The notes under the pieces are model-generated. The model had not been told where the DNA came from, searched no databases, and saw only the letters and a list, made by a program, of their open reading frames with translations. A program made the position numbers and the translations under genes. 64,000 nt of DNA from an uncultured Candidatus Saccharibacteria bacterium (GTDB taxonomy: Bacteria > Patescibacteriota > WWE3 > 2-01-FULL-39-13): positions 600,935 to 664,934 of the forward strand of contig OZ246395.1 in NCBI GenBank assembly GCA_965230915.1. The letters run 5' to 3'. Below, piece after piece: positions 3,566 through 19,038 of the stretch. How positions within the stretch are numbered: the stretch's first letter is position 1; every line of letters starts with the position of its first letter.

Positions 3566-3936
3566 AAATCTCCTTAAAAAATAAATAAAAAAAGCCCTTG
3601 CACTTCAACCAATCAAAATTAGATTGATAAAAGTACAAGGGCCTAAATTGCTCTACGGCGGTACCACCTTGTTTTCCCTCTTAGAAAGAGGCTTAATTAC
3701 AACGATTTCGGGCTTAACCGGAAAGTTCTACTTGCAAATCCTAAAAGGAGATCGCTTTCTTCTTTCTGCTCGCAGCTGATAACTGCTCAAACGCAATACT
3801 ATAAGGATATAGGCTTAAATTAAAAGAGTCAAATAAAAAATAAAACCTGCGAAAGTTGAGAGTGGTCACCCACCGAATTGAGATGTAAACATCTCAAAAC
3901 TCAACTTCCACAGGTTTAGAACAGGAGAGCACTAGG
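3566..3936 (-). promoter_or_regulatory. T-box riboswitch leader upstream of ileS
   Basis: The minus strand carries AACAAGGTGGTACCGCCGTAG (plus-strand 3651-3676), matching the T-box consensus AGGGTGGNACCGCG. It sits immediately 5' of the terminator hairpin and overlaps its 5' arm (antiterminator/terminator arrangement). An F-box-like CGGTTAAG lies upstream. The 5' boundary is uncertain. Confidence 0.65.
3594..3642 (-). terminator. intrinsic terminator hairpin of the ileS T-box leader
   Basis: Minus strand reads GCCCTTGTAC...GTGCAAGGGC (10-bp stem), followed by a T-run (plus-strand A-run 3581-3593), then AAGGAG and the ileS ATG. Confidence 0.7.
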
Positions 3937-4329
3937 CTATTTTGTGTATGTGGCAAGTATTTTCGCCAACTCGATGTCTCTCTCAGTTACGACAACCGGC
4001 AAACCAAGCCCTTCTACCAGGCTCTCATATGAGCACACGAAAAGATTACTGGTCCTCCTTTCATAGAGATGAAGTGATCGGTGCGAAGCTGGCAACTTTG
4101 TTCTCTCTGGAGTTCCGCGGTAATTGACAACCGCTTTCACACCGAAACCCTCATCGTATATGCCTTTGGTTTGCAGTGCCTCCATCATCGCGCCAAGATC
4201 TTCGTTCACGGCAATACGCTCGCCATCACCCCAATGAAAATCAATCTTATCAGGGTAAATATATACCAACCCTGTATAACGGGGCGGATTGCACTGGATC
4301 AAAACCCTTGGATAAATAATGTTTCCCAC
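3937..4329 (-). CDS. hypothetical protein
   Basis: 130-aa ORF with a protein-like, non-repetitive composition. The competing plus-strand ORFs are short and overlapping. No family recognised. Confidence 0.4.
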   Translation of the reverse strand: MGNIIYPRVLIQCNPPRYTGLVYIYPDKIDFHWGDGERIAVNEDLGAMMEALQTKGIYDEGFGVKAVVNYRGTPERTKLPASHRSLHLYERRTSNLFVCSYESLVEGLGLPVVVTERDIELAKILATYTK

Positions 4330-12204: not shown

Positions 12205-12756
12205 ATGGAATCAGACAAAAAGCTTGTTAGTGAAGCCCAGAAAGATATAAAAAACTTTGACAATATTTATGCAAGTTACTTTACTAAAATTAAGAATTAT
12301 TTTAAACCTAAAGTCAGCAATGATGAATTAATTGCAGAAGACTTAACTTCGCAAACTTTTGAAAAAGCTCTGAAAAATATAGACGGTTTTAAATGGCAAG
12401 GCGTTTCGTTTTCATCATGGCTTTATACAATTGCCAACAATACTCTTATCGACTTTTATAGAAAAAACAAAAAAACAATTAAAATCGATGACGAATTTTA
12501 CAACAATATAAAAGACGAATCGAAGTTAATCGAAGAAAGCGTGATAGAAGACGATACCGAAACAAGAATTAAAGAAATTTTAAGAGAATTATCAAGACGA
12601 GAACACACAATAATAATTCTTAAGTTTTATGACGGATTAAATAATAAAGAAATTGCAGAAAAGGTTGGCATTTCTGAATCAAATGTTGGAACTATAATAC
12701 ACAGAATAACAAAAAAACTAAAAGATAGAATTAAAGCCTCTCAACTAGTGGAATAA
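12205..12756 (+). CDS. ECF-type sigma-70 family RNA polymerase sigma factor
   Basis: Region 2 reads SSWLYTIANNTLIDFYRKNKK. Region 4 helix-turn-helix reads NKEIAEKVGISESNVGTIIHRITKKLK. Confidence 0.8.
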   Translation: MESDKKLVSEAQKDIKNFDNIYASYFTKIKNYFKPKVSNDELIAEDLTSQTFEKALKNIDGFKWQGVSFSSWLYTIANNTLIDFYRKNKKTIKIDDEFYNNIKDESKLIEESVIEDDTETRIKEILRELSRREHTIIILKFYDGLNNKEIAEKVGISESNVGTIIHRITKKLKDRIKASQLVE

Positions 12757-12758
12757 GT

Positions 12759-13937
12759 CTAAAGTGATAAATCCAAATTCAGGCTAGTTAAGTTATCAAT
12801 TAAATATTGGGTCTTATATGCGATGGCATTAAAATTGCTTACGCGGCTATATCCTCTTGATGCTACAGCCCCAAAAATTAAAACTCCGCCCCACTCTGCG
12901 TCGATAATTTCACTTTTAACAGATGATAAGTTATTCACAGGTCTTACAGTTACAACAACAATATCTGTGCCATCAGCGTAGCTAATTTTGCACCCCATAA
13001 TATTAAGCTCTGTTACTATATGAGAGAGCTCTTCGACATTTCTACAAATAACACTTACAGGTTTTTCTGCAATAAATGAAAGCATTAAAAATAGATATCC
13101 CAAAGCATCACACTTTAGCGTTAAAAATTCGTAAAGATCACTTAAATCCTTCTGGTGATGCCAAATTTTTAAACGCCCATCCATAACTTCATAATTTCCA
13201 GCTATTTCATCAAAAATCATTAAAAACTGAAGTGACTGAGATAAATCAAAATTTTCGATAATCACCTCTGATGATGGCAAAGCAGCCATAGCTACAAATA
13301 AATTAAATTCAAATTGGTTATATGGAACTTTTATGATATCTCCTTGTTCTAACTGTTGAATACTTGATAATCGGTAATCATTTTTATCGTAAACTACTGC
13401 TAAATTTTGCGTAAAATATGAACTAAAAATTCTTGACGCCGCCATATATAAATTCTCTCCCATTACACTTATCTGCAGTAAATCTTCGCTTCGATTTATG
13501 AAATTCCTACGAATTAATATGGAAGAATTATCGGGTTCGATATCAAATCCGATTTCGCGGTAGAATTTAGCTTCTTTTCGAAAAGTTAGAGGAACATAAC
13601 ACTCACCTCTTCTAAAAAGAATTGCCGGAATTAGAATTTGCGCAAATTTATAACTTATATTGGCTGATGATAGATCATTAGAGACCTCACCGGGAATTGT
13701 AACTGAAATACTAGTTTCATTTTCCCAAAATATATCAACGCCAAGTTCTTGAAGAATTGTAATAAAATCGAGAACCATTCCAGACCTTGGAACATTCTGC
13801 AAAATAACTTTTTTCTCCTTAAAAAAACTTTGGACAAGATAAAAAATTGTGATTTCAGAATCTCCGGATAACGAGACTGTTCCATAAGGGGTAACGCCAC
13901 CACGAACTTTTAATGTAGATTTAAGATTGTCATCCAT
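12759..13937 (-). CDS. divergent MurA-like (EPSP-synthase-fold UDP-GlcNAc enolpyruvyl transferase family) protein
   Basis: The N-terminus aligns by eye to MurA: LKVRGGVTPYGTVSLSGDSEITIF...VILQNVPRSGMVLDFITILQELGVDIFWEN against MurA I(I/F)VRGG..L.GTV...GAKNA.LP...VP.L.DV...L..LG. The Lys22 position (GAKNA) reads GDSEI. The Cys115 loop PGGC(A/T)IGxRP is not recognisable. Confidence 0.55.
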   Translation of the reverse strand: MDDNLKSTLKVRGGVTPYGTVSLSGDSEITIFYLVQSFFKEKKVILQNVPRSGMVLDFITILQELGVDIFWENETSISVTIPGEVSNDLSSANISYKFAQILIPAILFRRGECYVPLTFRKEAKFYREIGFDIEPDNSSILIRRNFINRSEDLLQISVMGENLYMAASRIFSSYFTQNLAVVYDKNDYRLSSIQQLEQGDIIKVPYNQFEFNLFVAMAALPSSEVIIENFDLSQSLQFLMIFDEIAGNYEVMDGRLKIWHHQKDLSDLYEFLTLKCDALGYLFLMLSFIAEKPVSVICRNVEELSHIVTELNIMGCKISYADGTDIVVVTVRPVNNLSSVKSEIIDAEWGGVLIFGAVASRGYSRVSNFNAIAYKTQYLIDNLTSLNLDLSL

Positions 13938-13975: not shown

Positions 13976-15691
13976 TTATTGTGGTTCTTGTTTATCGGCG
14001 GCTAATCCATAGTATGCTGCCAATTTTTCGGCAATAGACATCCAAAGCGGAACAGCCGTTTCTGCGGCATATCCACTTGGATAAGTTGGCTCTTCCAATT
14101 TTACATACAGAACAAAATTCTTATATGAAGGCATAAATCCGACAAAAGTTGCGTTAGTACGGTTGGGGTCGTATCCTCCAGGAACTGGAACTTGGGCGGT
14201 TCCTGTTTTTCCAGCTATATTATATTTTTTTGAAACAAAAAATTTGGCTTCTCCACCCGAAACTGCAGATGTTAATAAAGTGACCATTCTGTCAGCAGTA
14301 TTTGAAGTTATTGGACGTGAAATAGGATGGGGTTTGAATTCAACTTCTTTATCTTTGGTAACAATTTTCTTGACCACATATGGCTTCATTAATAGCCCAT
14401 CGTTGGCGACAGCTGCAAAAGACATTGTAACTTGAAGCGGAGTCATTGAAATTCCCTGTCCGAATGAAGCATTTGCGAGTTCGATATCTTTGAGATTTTC
14501 AGTTCCATACATTAAACCTCGTTCTTCGCCTTCTAAATCGACTCCAGTCGTTTGACCAAAACCAAAATCATGGAAGTATTCCATTAATGCATCGCCTCCT
14601 AATTGCTGTGCAACCCAAGCTGCACCCAAGTTATTCGATAATTGCAAAATTCGTGCAATATTAATTTCACCATGGTGCTTTCCATCCCAATTATCAACCA
14701 TGTAACCAGAAAATTCCTTCGGACCAGTATCATTATAAGTTGAATCTTCGTTAATCTTGCCAGCATCTAATGCACTGGCAACCGTTATAGCTTTTATAAC
14801 TGACCCTGGTTCGTATATTGATGAAATTGCGTCGTTACGAACGAGAGCTTCGTTTTCAAAAGCTTCTTTATAATTAGACGGGTCAAAATTCGGATAAGAT
14901 GCCATTGCAACAATTGCACCTGTTGATGGCTCAACAATAATTACAACACCTGATTTGGCGTTATAGTTATCTACAGCTGTTTTTAATTTATCTTCAATCA
15001 TAAACTGAATATTTCGATTTATTGTCAAATATAAATCGCTGCCATCGATTGGCGGAACTTTCTCAACGTCTCCCCATAAAATTGGATCACCACCTGCAGT
15101 ACGTTCTTGAAAAAGCCATCCATCTTGACCTTCAAGATCTCCGTTATAGTACTGTTCTAACCCGTAGTATCCGATATCTTTGGCATATTGGTCTTTCCCG
15201 ACGAAACCTAAGGTATTACTGAGCATTGTGGTTTCGGGATAATATCTCGAATAAGTTTCTTCGAAACCAACTCCAGGCATTTTTAGATCGTCGATTTTTT
15301 TGTATTGATCCCAATTTAAATTTTCCGAATACTTAATCCACTTTTTATTGGAATTAACTACTGCGTCTGAAGCTGGTTTATCCAGATCGGGTAAAATCGG
15401 CTTTAACTCGTGATATATATCCCGGGATTTGTCCATTTGTGTTGTATTCAGATACATCGTATATGCAACTTTATTAGTTGCGATAGGATAATCATCATTT
15501 GTATAAATTGTTCCTCGTTTTGCTTGAAGTGTATAACCGCTCCATTGCTGCTCACGCGCTTGTGCTTTATATTTTGATGAATTGATAACCTGAATCTGAA
15601 AAAGGCGAATACAAATAACTATAAGAAGAAATCCGACCCAATAAACTATTAAGTTATATCGCCACTCAGGATTTAAACGGGAGGCTTTCAT
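13976..15691 (-). CDS. ftsI: penicillin-binding protein 2B / FtsI transpeptidase
   Basis: 571 aa with an N-terminal TM anchor. Transpeptidase motifs SVIK (SXXK), SNN, and KTGT. Confidence 0.9.
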   Translation of the reverse strand: MKASRLNPEWRYNLIVYWVGFLLIVICIRLFQIQVINSSKYKAQAREQQWSGYTLQAKRGTIYTNDDYPIATNKVAYTMYLNTTQMDKSRDIYHELKPILPDLDKPASDAVVNSNKKWIKYSENLNWDQYKKIDDLKMPGVGFEETYSRYYPETTMLSNTLGFVGKDQYAKDIGYYGLEQYYNGDLEGQDGWLFQERTAGGDPILWGDVEKVPPIDGSDLYLTINRNIQFMIEDKLKTAVDNYNAKSGVVIIVEPSTGAIVAMASYPNFDPSNYKEAFENEALVRNDAISSIYEPGSVIKAITVASALDAGKINEDSTYNDTGPKEFSGYMVDNWDGKHHGEINIARILQLSNNLGAAWVAQQLGGDALMEYFHDFGFGQTTGVDLEGEERGLMYGTENLKDIELANASFGQGISMTPLQVTMSFAAVANDGLLMKPYVVKKIVTKDKEVEFKPHPISRPITSNTADRMVTLLTSAVSGGEAKFFVSKKYNIAGKTGTAQVPVPGGYDPNRTNATFVGFMPSYKNFVLYVKLEEPTYPSGYAAETAVPLWMSIAEKLAAYYGLAADKQEPQ

Positions 15692-15694
15692 ACT

Positions 15695-16344
15695 TTATTT
15701 AACAACTTTCACTATATAAATAAGCCATTTGGATCTTTCAGACATAGGTCTATAAATAAATTCTAAAATATCGAATCCATTTTCACTTAAAACTTGTCTA
15801 AATTCTGAATCTAAATAAAATGCCCAGAAACGGTTGTATGGGTTTCCATCACTACTCACTTCTTCACGAACTTCCTCACCTTCGCCTCTTTAATTGAAAT
15901 AAAGCCAACACCATTAGACCTAGTAATGTTATGCAAACGACTTAAACCTGATTCAATACGTCTTTTAGGTATATGTAACAGCATAGCCGATGCCCAAAAT
16001 CCATCAACAGAATTGCTTTCGAAAGGTAACTCATGCAAATTGCTTACTTGAAACATACCACCGGGATTTCGGGCTTGAGCAACCTCAATAAAGTTTGGGG
16101 CAGGGTCTGTACCTATATAAGAATACCCTCTACTAATAAGATCTTCTGCATCTCTTCCACCACCACAGCCAACTTCTAAGATAGTTCCTGATGGTAAATG
16201 AGTTTGAAAAACTGTCATTTCTTCCTGCCAAAAGCCGCGCCCAGCATGCGCTTCCGCCCAATTTTGCGCAGTTGAGTTGTATGCATCAATCGTTAACGCT
16301 TCTTCTGGAGTCAGAGACTTCTCGGTATCAGTTTCAATTTCCAT
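15695..16344 (-). pseudogene. class I SAM-dependent methyltransferase interrupted by a -1 frameshift
   Basis: Frame A (15856..16344) encodes 162 aa with LEVGCGGGRDAEDL and ends at TGA. A second frame, shifted by -1, is open across 15695..15889. It encodes EEVSSDGNPYNRFWAFYLDSEFRQVLSENGFDILEFIYRPMSERSKWLIYIVKVVK, a typical methyltransferase C-terminus. Its stop lies 3 nt before the ftsI ATG. The two frames overlap in 15857-15889. Confidence 0.6.
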
Positions 16345-16369
16345 TAATGAAATATATCACTTCTAAAGT

Positions 16370-16735
16370 TTATCTAGCAGCCAGCTCCGGAGATGTGTAA
16401 TACTCAACATTTGCCTCAACATAGCCATTTTCTAATGCCAGCGGCTTTATAACTGATAAAGAGGTTAATGTTAAATACTGATTTTTCAGATACTCGTTTT
16501 GCTGATGATATGCAGTAATTTCGTTTTCGATCTTTGATAAATTGCTTCCGGCAATTGAAGCTTTATCAGAATAATAAAATCTAGCGCCAAGTGTGATTAA
16601 TAGTGCAAATGTCAAAAATATATTTAAGAAAGTTACAAATTTGAATTTACCGTGATTATGAGTTGATTTTTCAACATTTGGTTTGTCGAAATGGATTGAG
16701 GTTATTGATTTTCTTACGTTATTAAATTTTTTCAT
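16370..16735 (-). CDS. ftsL: FtsL-like cell division protein
   Basis: 121 aa with one TM segment followed by a coiled-coil-like stretch (KIENEITAYHQQNEYLKNQYLTL). Sits immediately downstream of rsmH. Confidence 0.6.
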   Translation of the reverse strand: MKKFNNVRKSITSIHFDKPNVEKSTHNHGKFKFVTFLNIFLTFALLITLGARFYYSDKASIAGSNLSKIENEITAYHQQNEYLKNQYLTLTSLSVIKPLALENGYVEANVEYYTSPELAAR

Positions 16736-17600
16736 AGATTCTTAATTTTGCACTTCTCGAAGCGGAATTATTTTCAATTTCGACTTCAGAAGGAACAATT
16801 GGTTCCTTATTAACTTTTTTAAGGTCGCCTCTGGTATTTAAATTTTTAGCGATTTTGTCTTCCAGCGAATGAAAAGTTATTATCGAAAGCCTTCCACCAA
16901 CTTTTAATAAGTCGGCAGCATCTTGCGATGATGTTTCAAAATTTGATAATTCGCTATTAACAGCAATTCTTAAAGCTTGAAAAACGCGTGTTGCAGGATG
17001 ATTTCGGCTTACCTGATACCTCGAAGTATTCTTGATAACTTCGGCGAGTTCATTTGCCTTTACATTTGCCCCTCGCTGTTTAATTAGTTTCTTAATTGCT
17101 TTTGCATAAAGCTTTGCTTGAGGTTCTTCTCCATAATCTAAAATCAGAGAAGCAATTTCGTCTTCGGATAAAACTACGAGTAGATCGATTGCACGAACTC
17201 CTAGTTCGTGGTCCATTCTCATATCGAGTTCTGTTGAGTCTTCGAAGCTGAACCCTCTTGCAGCTTGCTTAATTTGAAATGTGCTAAGCCCTAAGTCGTA
17301 TAAAATCCCATCTATTTGTGATTCTTTCCAGCCGATTTCTTTTACTGCACGCTTAATATCTTTAAAGTTAGTTTTTAATATTTTTAGATGGCCATTGTGG
17401 ATTTCTTCGTGAAATCTATGCTCGCAGTGCTCAATTGCTGCGACATCAATGTCTAGCGCTAAAACATTTCCACCTAACTCTAAAATCTTCGCGGTATGCC
17501 CTCCACCGCCAAGATTGCAATCAATATAATTGCCACCTTTTTTAATATTCAAACCTTCAATTGCTTCGGTTAATAAAACAGATGTATGTTGAAATTCCAT
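16722..17600 (-). CDS. rsmH: 16S rRNA m4C1402 methyltransferase RsmH (MraW)
   Basis: N-terminus HTSVLLTEAIEGL...YIDCNLGGGGHTAKILE is diagnostic for RsmH. Confidence 0.95.
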   Translation of the reverse strand: MEFQHTSVLLTEAIEGLNIKKGGNYIDCNLGGGGHTAKILELGGNVLALDIDVAAIEHCEHRFHEEIHNGHLKILKTNFKDIKRAVKEIGWKESQIDGILYDLGLSTFQIKQAARGFSFEDSTELDMRMDHELGVRAIDLLVVLSEDEIASLILDYGEEPQAKLYAKAIKKLIKQRGANVKANELAEVIKNTSRYQVSRNHPATRVFQALRIAVNSELSNFETSSQDAADLLKVGGRLSIITFHSLEDKIAKNLNTRGDLKKVNKEPIVPSEVEIENNSASRSAKLRIYEKI

Positions 17601-18108: not shown

Positions 18109-18231
18109 GTATTACATATTATGGTATGACAAAGGGGGAAGTTAGGGAACACGAAGAATACCCGAAAGCAGCAACGTTTAAAAACCTAGGTGCTTTCATA
18201 TAGTGCTAAAAATAGTAATATTACGATTAAT

Positions 18232-19038
18232 ATGAATAAGTGGAAAATTCTGTCTATATTCCTTATAGTTACACAAATAACGTCTATAATAGCTTTCACT
18301 TATTTTTACTATCCTCAATTAACCAGGTTTACAACTAACACACCTAAAATAGATGACCCTAAAGAACAACTTTTAACATGGGCTGAAAAGTATAACAGCG
18401 AACAATGGCAGAAATATTTGCAAAATTGGCAAAAAATAAAGGGTGATGAAAGTATGAAACAGGTTATAAAATGTAGAATCGATATTGACAATAAAATCTC
18501 GCAGCTAGAACCAATATATCTAAAAGCCTTAAGGGAAAATGAGACGGGCAATGCTACTGTAGAGAGTCGGTATTCCGAAGGTATTTATAAAACACTTAAA
18601 AATATTTCAGATAAACTTTGGGATATCACTTATCCGTACGATAGAGACGAACCTGATTTCCAAGGAGGACTGTTTATCTATACAAAATTTGATAACAACT
18701 TGGATGTTTTTAATCAGGCTTATATTGATAAAAATATAGTAGGCACTAAGCAAACACTTGAATACTACAACACGCAATTTAATAATGATCTAATAGAAGC
18801 AGAAAATGTATATTGTCCCAAATTGGATTCCATCGGGGCTAAACCTCCTATGACTTCAGCACAGTGCATTGAGATTGCCAAATTTATAAATAGCACAGCT
18901 GTACCTGAAGGGAGAGAGTCTTTTGAATTACAAGGAGAATACGAAATATCATTAGAAAAATTTGAGAAGGCAAAAATTAGTAGATTAGAATTATGCAATT
19001 CAACTTCGGAATTAAATTCACCCTATTTCAGATTCTAA
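18232..19038 (+). CDS. hypothetical membrane-anchored protein
   Basis: The ATG at 18232 gives MNKWKILSIFLIVTQITSIIAFTYFYY (one TM segment) followed by a hydrophilic 240-aa domain containing several Cys. The listed GTG at 18190 is probably a spurious upstream start. No family recognised. Confidence 0.5.
   Translation: MNKWKILSIFLIVTQITSIIAFTYFYYPQLTRFTTNTPKIDDPKEQLLTWAEKYNSEQWQKYLQNWQKIKGDESMKQVIKCRIDIDNKISQLEPIYLKALRENETGNATVESRYSEGIYKTLKNISDKLWDITYPYDRDEPDFQGGLFIYTKFDNNLDVFNQAYIDKNIVGTKQTLEYYNTQFNNDLIEAENVYCPKLDSIGAKPPMTSAQCIEIAKFINSTAVPEGRESFELQGEYEISLEKFEKAKISRLELCNSTSELNSPYFRF

Follow-up and report, generated by a model that had tools for sequence, protein, structure and literature searches.

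A probable recent frameshift pseudogene of an accessory methyltransferase between ftsL and ftsI in the dcw cluster of a Patescibacteria-type bacterium

Within the 64-kb stretch of DNA analysed here, referred to as the window, a methyltransferase gene lying between ftsL and ftsI is divided over two reading frames. Overall, the evidence leads us to regard it, with a probability of roughly three in four, as a genuine and recent pseudogene of an accessory methyltransferase, produced by the deletion of one base. The initial annotation had left the choice between a recent pseudogene, a sequencing error and programmed recoding, and among these three the evidence favours the recent pseudogene; most probably the gene was inactivated very recently and in an ordinary way, and no recoding signal is involved. 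In the course of events that we propose, a stand-alone accessory methyltransferase gene, placed in this lineage alone between ftsL and ftsI, would have lost one base in its Glu153-Gly154 codons. Ribosomes starting from the ATG at 16344 would then read the conserved frame as far as Glu153 and incorporate nine unrelated residues before they reach the TGA at 15856-15858, yielding a product that lacks a β-hairpin, a helix and strands β6 and β7 and is most likely inactive. The gene would accordingly be a young pseudogene, the 3' part of which has suffered no further damage so far. It is an ordinary finding with little weight beyond annotation, and its main value lies there: the public 162-aa and 54-aa gene calls should be merged and flagged as one frameshifted class I SAM methyltransferase pseudogene. 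On a small scale it may also illustrate how an accessory gene, once taken up into the otherwise conserved mraZ-rsmH-ftsL-ftsI operon of a reduced-genome (CPR/Patescibacteria-type) bacterium, is now being lost again.

The two reading frames and the site of the deletion

The features on which the analysis rests are the following.

16370..16735, reverse strand: FtsL-like ORF of 121 aa, the upstream neighbour, with its stop 25 nt before the methyltransferase ATG
15856..16344, reverse strand: N-terminal methyltransferase fragment, the 162-aa ORF (from the ORF list and translation)
15695..15889, reverse strand: C-terminal part in the -1 frame, 64 sense codons (RGEGEEVREEVSSDGNPYNRFWAFY...VKVVK) and TAA (from translation)
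15884..15888, reverse strand: position of the one-base deletion, with GAGGC in place of the GAR GGN of homologues (Glu/Gln153-Gly154)
15856..15859, reverse strand: GTGA overlap, in which the GTG at 15859-15857 opening the 54-codon ORF overlaps the TGA of the 162-aa ORF
13976..15691, reverse strand: ftsI, class B penicillin-binding protein of 571 aa, the downstream neighbour (Pfam Transpeptidase 220 bits, PBP_dimer 75 bits)

The methyltransferase ORF begins with the ATG at 16344 and ends with the TGA at 15858-15856, as the initial annotation had placed it. Its authentic residues are 1-153, after which come nine out-of-frame residues (AKVRKFVKK) and the stop. The -1 frame is closed upstream by a TAA at 15892-15890, is open over 15889-15698 and ends with a TAA at 15697-15695; translation confirms that the two open frames overlap in 15857-15889 and only there, as had been reported. 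The -1 frame had been described as open for 54 codons down to the TAA at 15695-15697, 3 nt before the ftsI ATG. Both the TAA and its distance from this ATG, which lies at 15691, are correct, whereas the full open length is 64 codons, the number 54 being counted from the GTG at 15859. This GTG, originally the codon of Val164, is the start of the 54-codon ORF as called by gene finders, and four-base stop/start overlaps like the one it forms are found at five other gene junctions in the window.

A family profile of 207 positions was built from intact homologues only (n = 109). Frame 0 accounts for its positions 2 to about 145 with 213 bits and the -1 frame for positions 145-206 with 55.8 bits (E = 1e-18), and the third frame has no match to this profile of 109 intact homologues. 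The second frame is therefore the real C-terminus of the protein, which substantiates the earlier claim that it encodes a methyltransferase C-terminus; it had also been considered that this frame might not be conserved in homologues, and over profile positions 145-206 it is. The repaired protein of 216 aa matches positions 2-206 of the 207 at 283 bits, in line with the proposal that a single-nucleotide change within 15857-15889 restores a protein of about 216 aa. In addition, the match to the Pfam family Methyltransf_23 widens to residues 46-194 once the frames are fused, and only after this fusion is it found at 29 bits (cut-off 27).

The conserved motif GFISIKEGxGE narrows down the position of the change. 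In alignment A1, in which 18 of 19 homologue rows span the junction (the remaining one, P0105, lies on a 931-bp contig and stops shortly after it), K152 and G154 show no variation and G156 and E157 hardly any. Since K152 (AAA, 15891-15889) is read in frame 0 and G154 (GGC, 15886-15884) in the -1 frame, the switch of frame is confined to the Glu153 codon. The comparison with orthologues that had been recommended for locating the indel thus places it in the Glu153/Gly154 codons at 15884-15888, a narrower range than first given. At the DNA level, blastn against the closest homologue (L040) opens a single-base gap at this site, with AAAG-AGGCGAAGG in the window and AAAGAAGGTCAAGG in the homologue. 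The sequences thus point to an ancestral GAR GGC that has lost one base and left GAGGC (15888-15884). With the deletion the junction reads AAAGAGGCGAAGG, and with the base restored it would read AAAGAGGGCGAAGG or AAAGAAGGCGAAGG (GAGGGC or GAAGGC); the protein spanning the repaired junction would read ...FISIKEGEGEEVR... or ISIKEGEGEEVR.

The part behind the lesion is well preserved. Against the family profile the C-terminal segment reaches 59.4 bits, which places it at the 77th percentile of 94 intact homologues (mean 53.8 ± 7.3), and its identity to the closest homologue is 73%, as against 65% for the N-terminal part. No stop is found in the 64 codons of the -1 frame, and in the one strain at hand no decay is detectable. 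This leaves two readings, a very recent event or continued expression of the region, and the undecayed 3' frame fits both equally well.

Homologues and genomic context

On the whole, 123 relatives of the repaired protein are retrieved at E <= 0.001, almost all of them single proteins of 200-217 aa from metagenome bins of Patescibacteria/CPR. Most of the best 120 of these 123 have identities of 33-68% over nearly the full length, and among the matches listed the best intact homologue reaches 68% identity to the repaired protein. They make up an unnamed family of methyltransferases of about 200-215 aa in Patescibacteria/CPR (WWE3, Woesebacteria, Daviesbacteria, Dojkabacteria, Microgenomates and others), with which the window copy has the C-terminal motif ...SExTxWLxYFV in common. 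The other family members examined are single ORFs with variable and unrelated neighbours, whereas the window copy is the only one located in a dcw cluster and, among the members examined, the only one broken at codon 153/154. The translated BLAST search for an intact protein that the initial annotation had suggested gives one uninterrupted tblastn segment in one frame across the site for 34 of 34 loci from species-representative genomes, and three further contigs carrying the closest homologues (L037, L039 and L040) have single ORFs of 206-214 aa. Hence no frameshift at the site occurs at the DNA level in the 37 homologue loci, nor in the full-length proteins aligned across the junction, and a two-ORF arrangement at codon 153/154 is absent both from the homologues aligned in A1 and from the 34 tblastn loci. 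As a clue to function, a shared gene neighbour was looked for as well, and no neighbour is common to more than 4 of the 34 loci. Among the records retrieved, several of L006, L007, L012, L013, L015 and L023 are titled 'uncultured Gammaproteobacteria', 'Woesearchaeota' or 'Binatia', and these titles look inconsistent with the otherwise Patescibacteria-restricted distribution of the methyltransferase.

Two relatives carry damage at other places. The locus L042 (2299-2926), from a groundwater metagenome and encoding P0109 with the close variant P0108, is frameshifted as well, near residue 70 and in the opposite direction: profile positions 2-63 are matched by one frame and 63-205 by the following one, and P0109-type sequence is found on at least three contigs. 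At L043 (2380-2995), P0106 is called as a protein of 164 aa, while in the upstream part of that frame the match to the family profile already starts at position 5; this part is closed by an in-frame TAA at the third codon after an ATG, representing a nonsense mutation or an unusual start. Damage at sites other than that of the window copy is the pattern expected of a dispensable gene, and these independent breaks suggest that the methyltransferase family may be dispensable.

The genes around the window copy are those of a dcw cluster, in the order MraZ, RsmH, FtsL-like ORF, methyltransferase, FtsI, MurA-like ORF, ECF-type sigma factor (on the opposite strand), FtsW, MurG, FtsQ, FtsA and FtsZ. 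The placement of the methyltransferase between ftsL and ftsI is as first described, with the caveat that the 121-aa FtsL-like ORF has no Pfam match; its name would follow from its position after rsmH, its size, a predicted TM segment and a coiled-coil-like or heptad-like stretch. That a methyltransferase is unusual in a division and cell-wall cluster, as had been remarked, agrees with the homologues, since 0 of 37 loci lie in a dcw context. No dcw genes are found in the flanks of these 37 loci (the 34 genome loci with L037, L039 and L040), the sole dcw-type gene recorded being a distant FtsW fragment, about 4.8 kb away in L024. The placement between ftsL and ftsI is therefore specific to this lineage. 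Recent horizontal acquisition is not supported by composition: the G+C content of the gene is 38.6%, compared with 33.9 ± 3.8% for the mean of the window ORFs (z = +1.2). A scan for promoters and terminators over 15500-16800 reveals nothing beyond chance, and no terminator is seen between the methyltransferase and ftsI.

Some further observations concern the cluster as a whole. Between ftsW and the MurA-like ORF lies the sigma-70 family gene of ECF type (12205-12756, forward strand; Sigma70_r2 and r4_2), which represents a second lineage-specific insertion in the cluster. The MurA-like ORF itself, between ftsI and ftsW, encodes 392 aa (12759-13937, reverse strand) and has a weak, partial match of EPSP_synthase/MurA type (26 bits, residues 9-82). 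The genes murE, murF, mraY and murD are absent from this stretch of the cluster, and the start codons of the dcw region have no obvious Shine-Dalgarno sequences. Divergent from mraZ is an ORF of 282 aa (18190-19038, forward strand) belonging to no Pfam family, which is called as 268 aa in a Logan contig.

Enzyme class and the predicted effect of the truncation

In its sequence features the 162-aa ORF is a member of the class I SAM-dependent methyltransferases. It matches Methyltransf_11 at 57.7 bits (cut-off 21.2) and Methyltransf_25 at 57.6 bits (cut-off 27) in Pfam, and it has the SAM-binding motif I (GxGxG) as EVGCGGGRD, that is E57-V-G59-C-G61-G62-G63-R-D65, together with the acidic residue at the end of β2 in G78-T79-D80 (GTD). 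The columns of motif I and of GTD are invariant or nearly so in alignments A1 and A2. No NCBIfam equivalog reaches its cut-off for the methyltransferase, and all matches appear to be with generic class I methyltransferases of the small-molecule type (Methyltransf_11/25/23 type).

Comparison of structures gives the same picture. The AlphaFold model of the repaired protein (pLDDT 95.5, pTM 0.91) has a seven-stranded Rossmann-like fold, and Foldseek aligns it with RPA2492 (PDB 3e23), cg3271 (3h2b) and 5ufm at E = 1e-15 to 1e-13 and a TM of about 0.7; the sequence profile also matches 3e23 at E = 1e-17. The closest solved relatives, RPA2492 and cg3271, are uncharacterised structural-genomics proteins, and the top fold match is 1,6-didemethyltoxoflavin N1-methyltransferase (5ufm) of the toxoflavin pathway, while the identity of the repaired protein to any characterised enzyme is only 15-24%. 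For the best matches, 3e23, 3h2b and the toxoflavin-pathway enzyme, the identity is 18-24%. Unlike these class I methyltransferases, the window copy is interrupted by a frameshift.

In the model, the break falls at the end of β5 (strand 141-153). The 162-aa product is predicted to lack strands 157-163 and 169-175, which form the hairpin 157-175, as well as the helix 179-188 and the core strands 191-200 and 206-214 (β6 and β7). A complete seven-stranded sheet in one polypeptide is thus present in the repaired model and missing from the gene as encoded. With the last two core strands lost, the encoded product is most likely inactive, and on the model the truncation would be expected to abolish folding or activity.

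Artefact, residual function and recoding as alternative explanations

The alternative to be weighed first is that the gene is intact in the organism and that sequencing or the consensus dropped one base, a G of GGG or an A of AA. Errors of this kind typically take the form of a single-base indel, and the 3' frame is perfectly preserved, as if the gene were intact. The site has been recovered independently, however. An exact look-up of the 162-aa product finds it on two contigs from different runs, L001 (6,035 bp, SRR14271365) and L002 (1,900 bp, SRR14271372), and from end to end, across the junction too, both contigs show 100% identity to the window; an NCBI contig of 945,287 bp is likewise recorded with the 162-aa and the 54-aa product. 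The agreement is exact between three assemblies produced by different programs, two of them being de Bruijn-graph assemblies of separate runs. That each of the two per-run assemblies, built independently, gives exactly this sequence makes a plain assembly error unlikely. Moreover, there is no long homopolymer at the site, the nearby runs being AAA and GG. In the 64 kb, of which 96.8% is coding, the ORFs are long and no second gene is obviously interrupted, which indicates that errors are not frequent in this sequence. The accession numbers of the two runs are neighbours, and both runs may stem from the project or community that also yielded the deposited genome. With assemblies and not reads as the evidence, and with runs that probably share a project with the genome, some doubt about an artefact is left; a systematic read error is unlikely, and a mutation in the organism itself is what the assemblies point to. 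On balance we consider an artefact unlikely.

The searches made for an intact allele of the same species found none. The exact look-up of the neighbouring FtsL returns the same two contigs only, a junction pattern with room for one additional base or none has no match in the JGI metagenomes, retrieval of the locus through FtsI brings up no relative in the JGI metagenomes, and the protein search has no match between 68% and 99% identity.

A second alternative accepts the mutation and holds that the broken gene still matters, either because the 54-codon ORF is re-initiated at GTGA and the fragments complement each other, or because its translation is kept for coupling to ftsI. The arrangement looks suitable at first sight: stop and start overlap as GTGA, a type of overlap used at the other junctions counted above, just 3 nt separate the TAA from the ftsI ATG, nothing resembling a Shine-Dalgarno sequence is seen ahead of ftsI, and the 3' frame is undecayed. 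But the GTG is the ancestral Val164 codon, which makes the overlap a by-product of the shift, and recency explains the missing decay equally well. According to the model, moreover, the fragments would be without strand 157-163 and would carry nine wrong residues, and no homologue is arranged as two ORFs here. This makes a residual role quite unlikely in our estimate. More specifically, the split might be tolerated or even used, with re-initiation at GTGA delivering ribosomes to the ftsI start or the fragments reassembling as an active split methyltransferase, for which we see a very small chance. If the split were used, an accessory gene captured in the dcw operon would have become a translational 'leader' for ftsI. 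If the region is still expressed, translational coupling could also run through a dead gene, and nothing in the present data requires such coupling.

The least probable explanation, to which we give almost no weight, is that the complete enzyme of 216 aa is made after all, by programmed -1 ribosomal frameshifting or by transcriptional slippage. In its favour are the -1 relation of the two frames and the intact, conserved state of the downstream one, but programmed frameshifting fails all defining tests applied. None of the 13 frame-0 heptamers across 15861-15898 is of the form X XXY YYZ. Conservation allows a shift at the Glu153 codon only, where re-pairing from GAG to AGA is impossible (AUUAAAGAGGCGAAGG), and no homopolymer for slippage of RNA polymerase is present, the longest runs nearby being AAA and GG. 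For a segment of 111 nt that takes in the site and its downstream flank, the MFE is -15.7 kcal/mol, while shuffled sequences average -18.6 (z = +0.94), and 169 of 200 shuffles fold at least as well. Nor is the shift conserved: none of the 37 homologue loci has one at this site, and the other frameshift in the family lies elsewhere and runs in the opposite direction. The window copy resembles dnaX and the transposases of IS elements in having two overlapping, -1-related ORFs that jointly encode one homologous protein, and differs from them in having no slippery sequence, no stimulatory structure and no conserved shift.

A changed genetic code is rejected as well. UGA as a sense codon (code 4 or 25) is incompatible with the 13 of 53 ORFs that end with TGA, and the standard code therefore applies; readthrough of the TGA in frame 0 would add only 15 unrelated codons before a TAG.

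In the 64 kb of the window, which has a G+C content of 33.9%, no tRNA or other Rfam family is detected at the gathering threshold. The longest non-coding gap, of 371 nt at 3566-3936, likewise gives nothing with Rfam. It adjoins an ORF of 130 aa (3937-4329, reverse strand), which has no Pfam match and the highest G+C content in the window, 46.6% compared with the mean of 33.9%.
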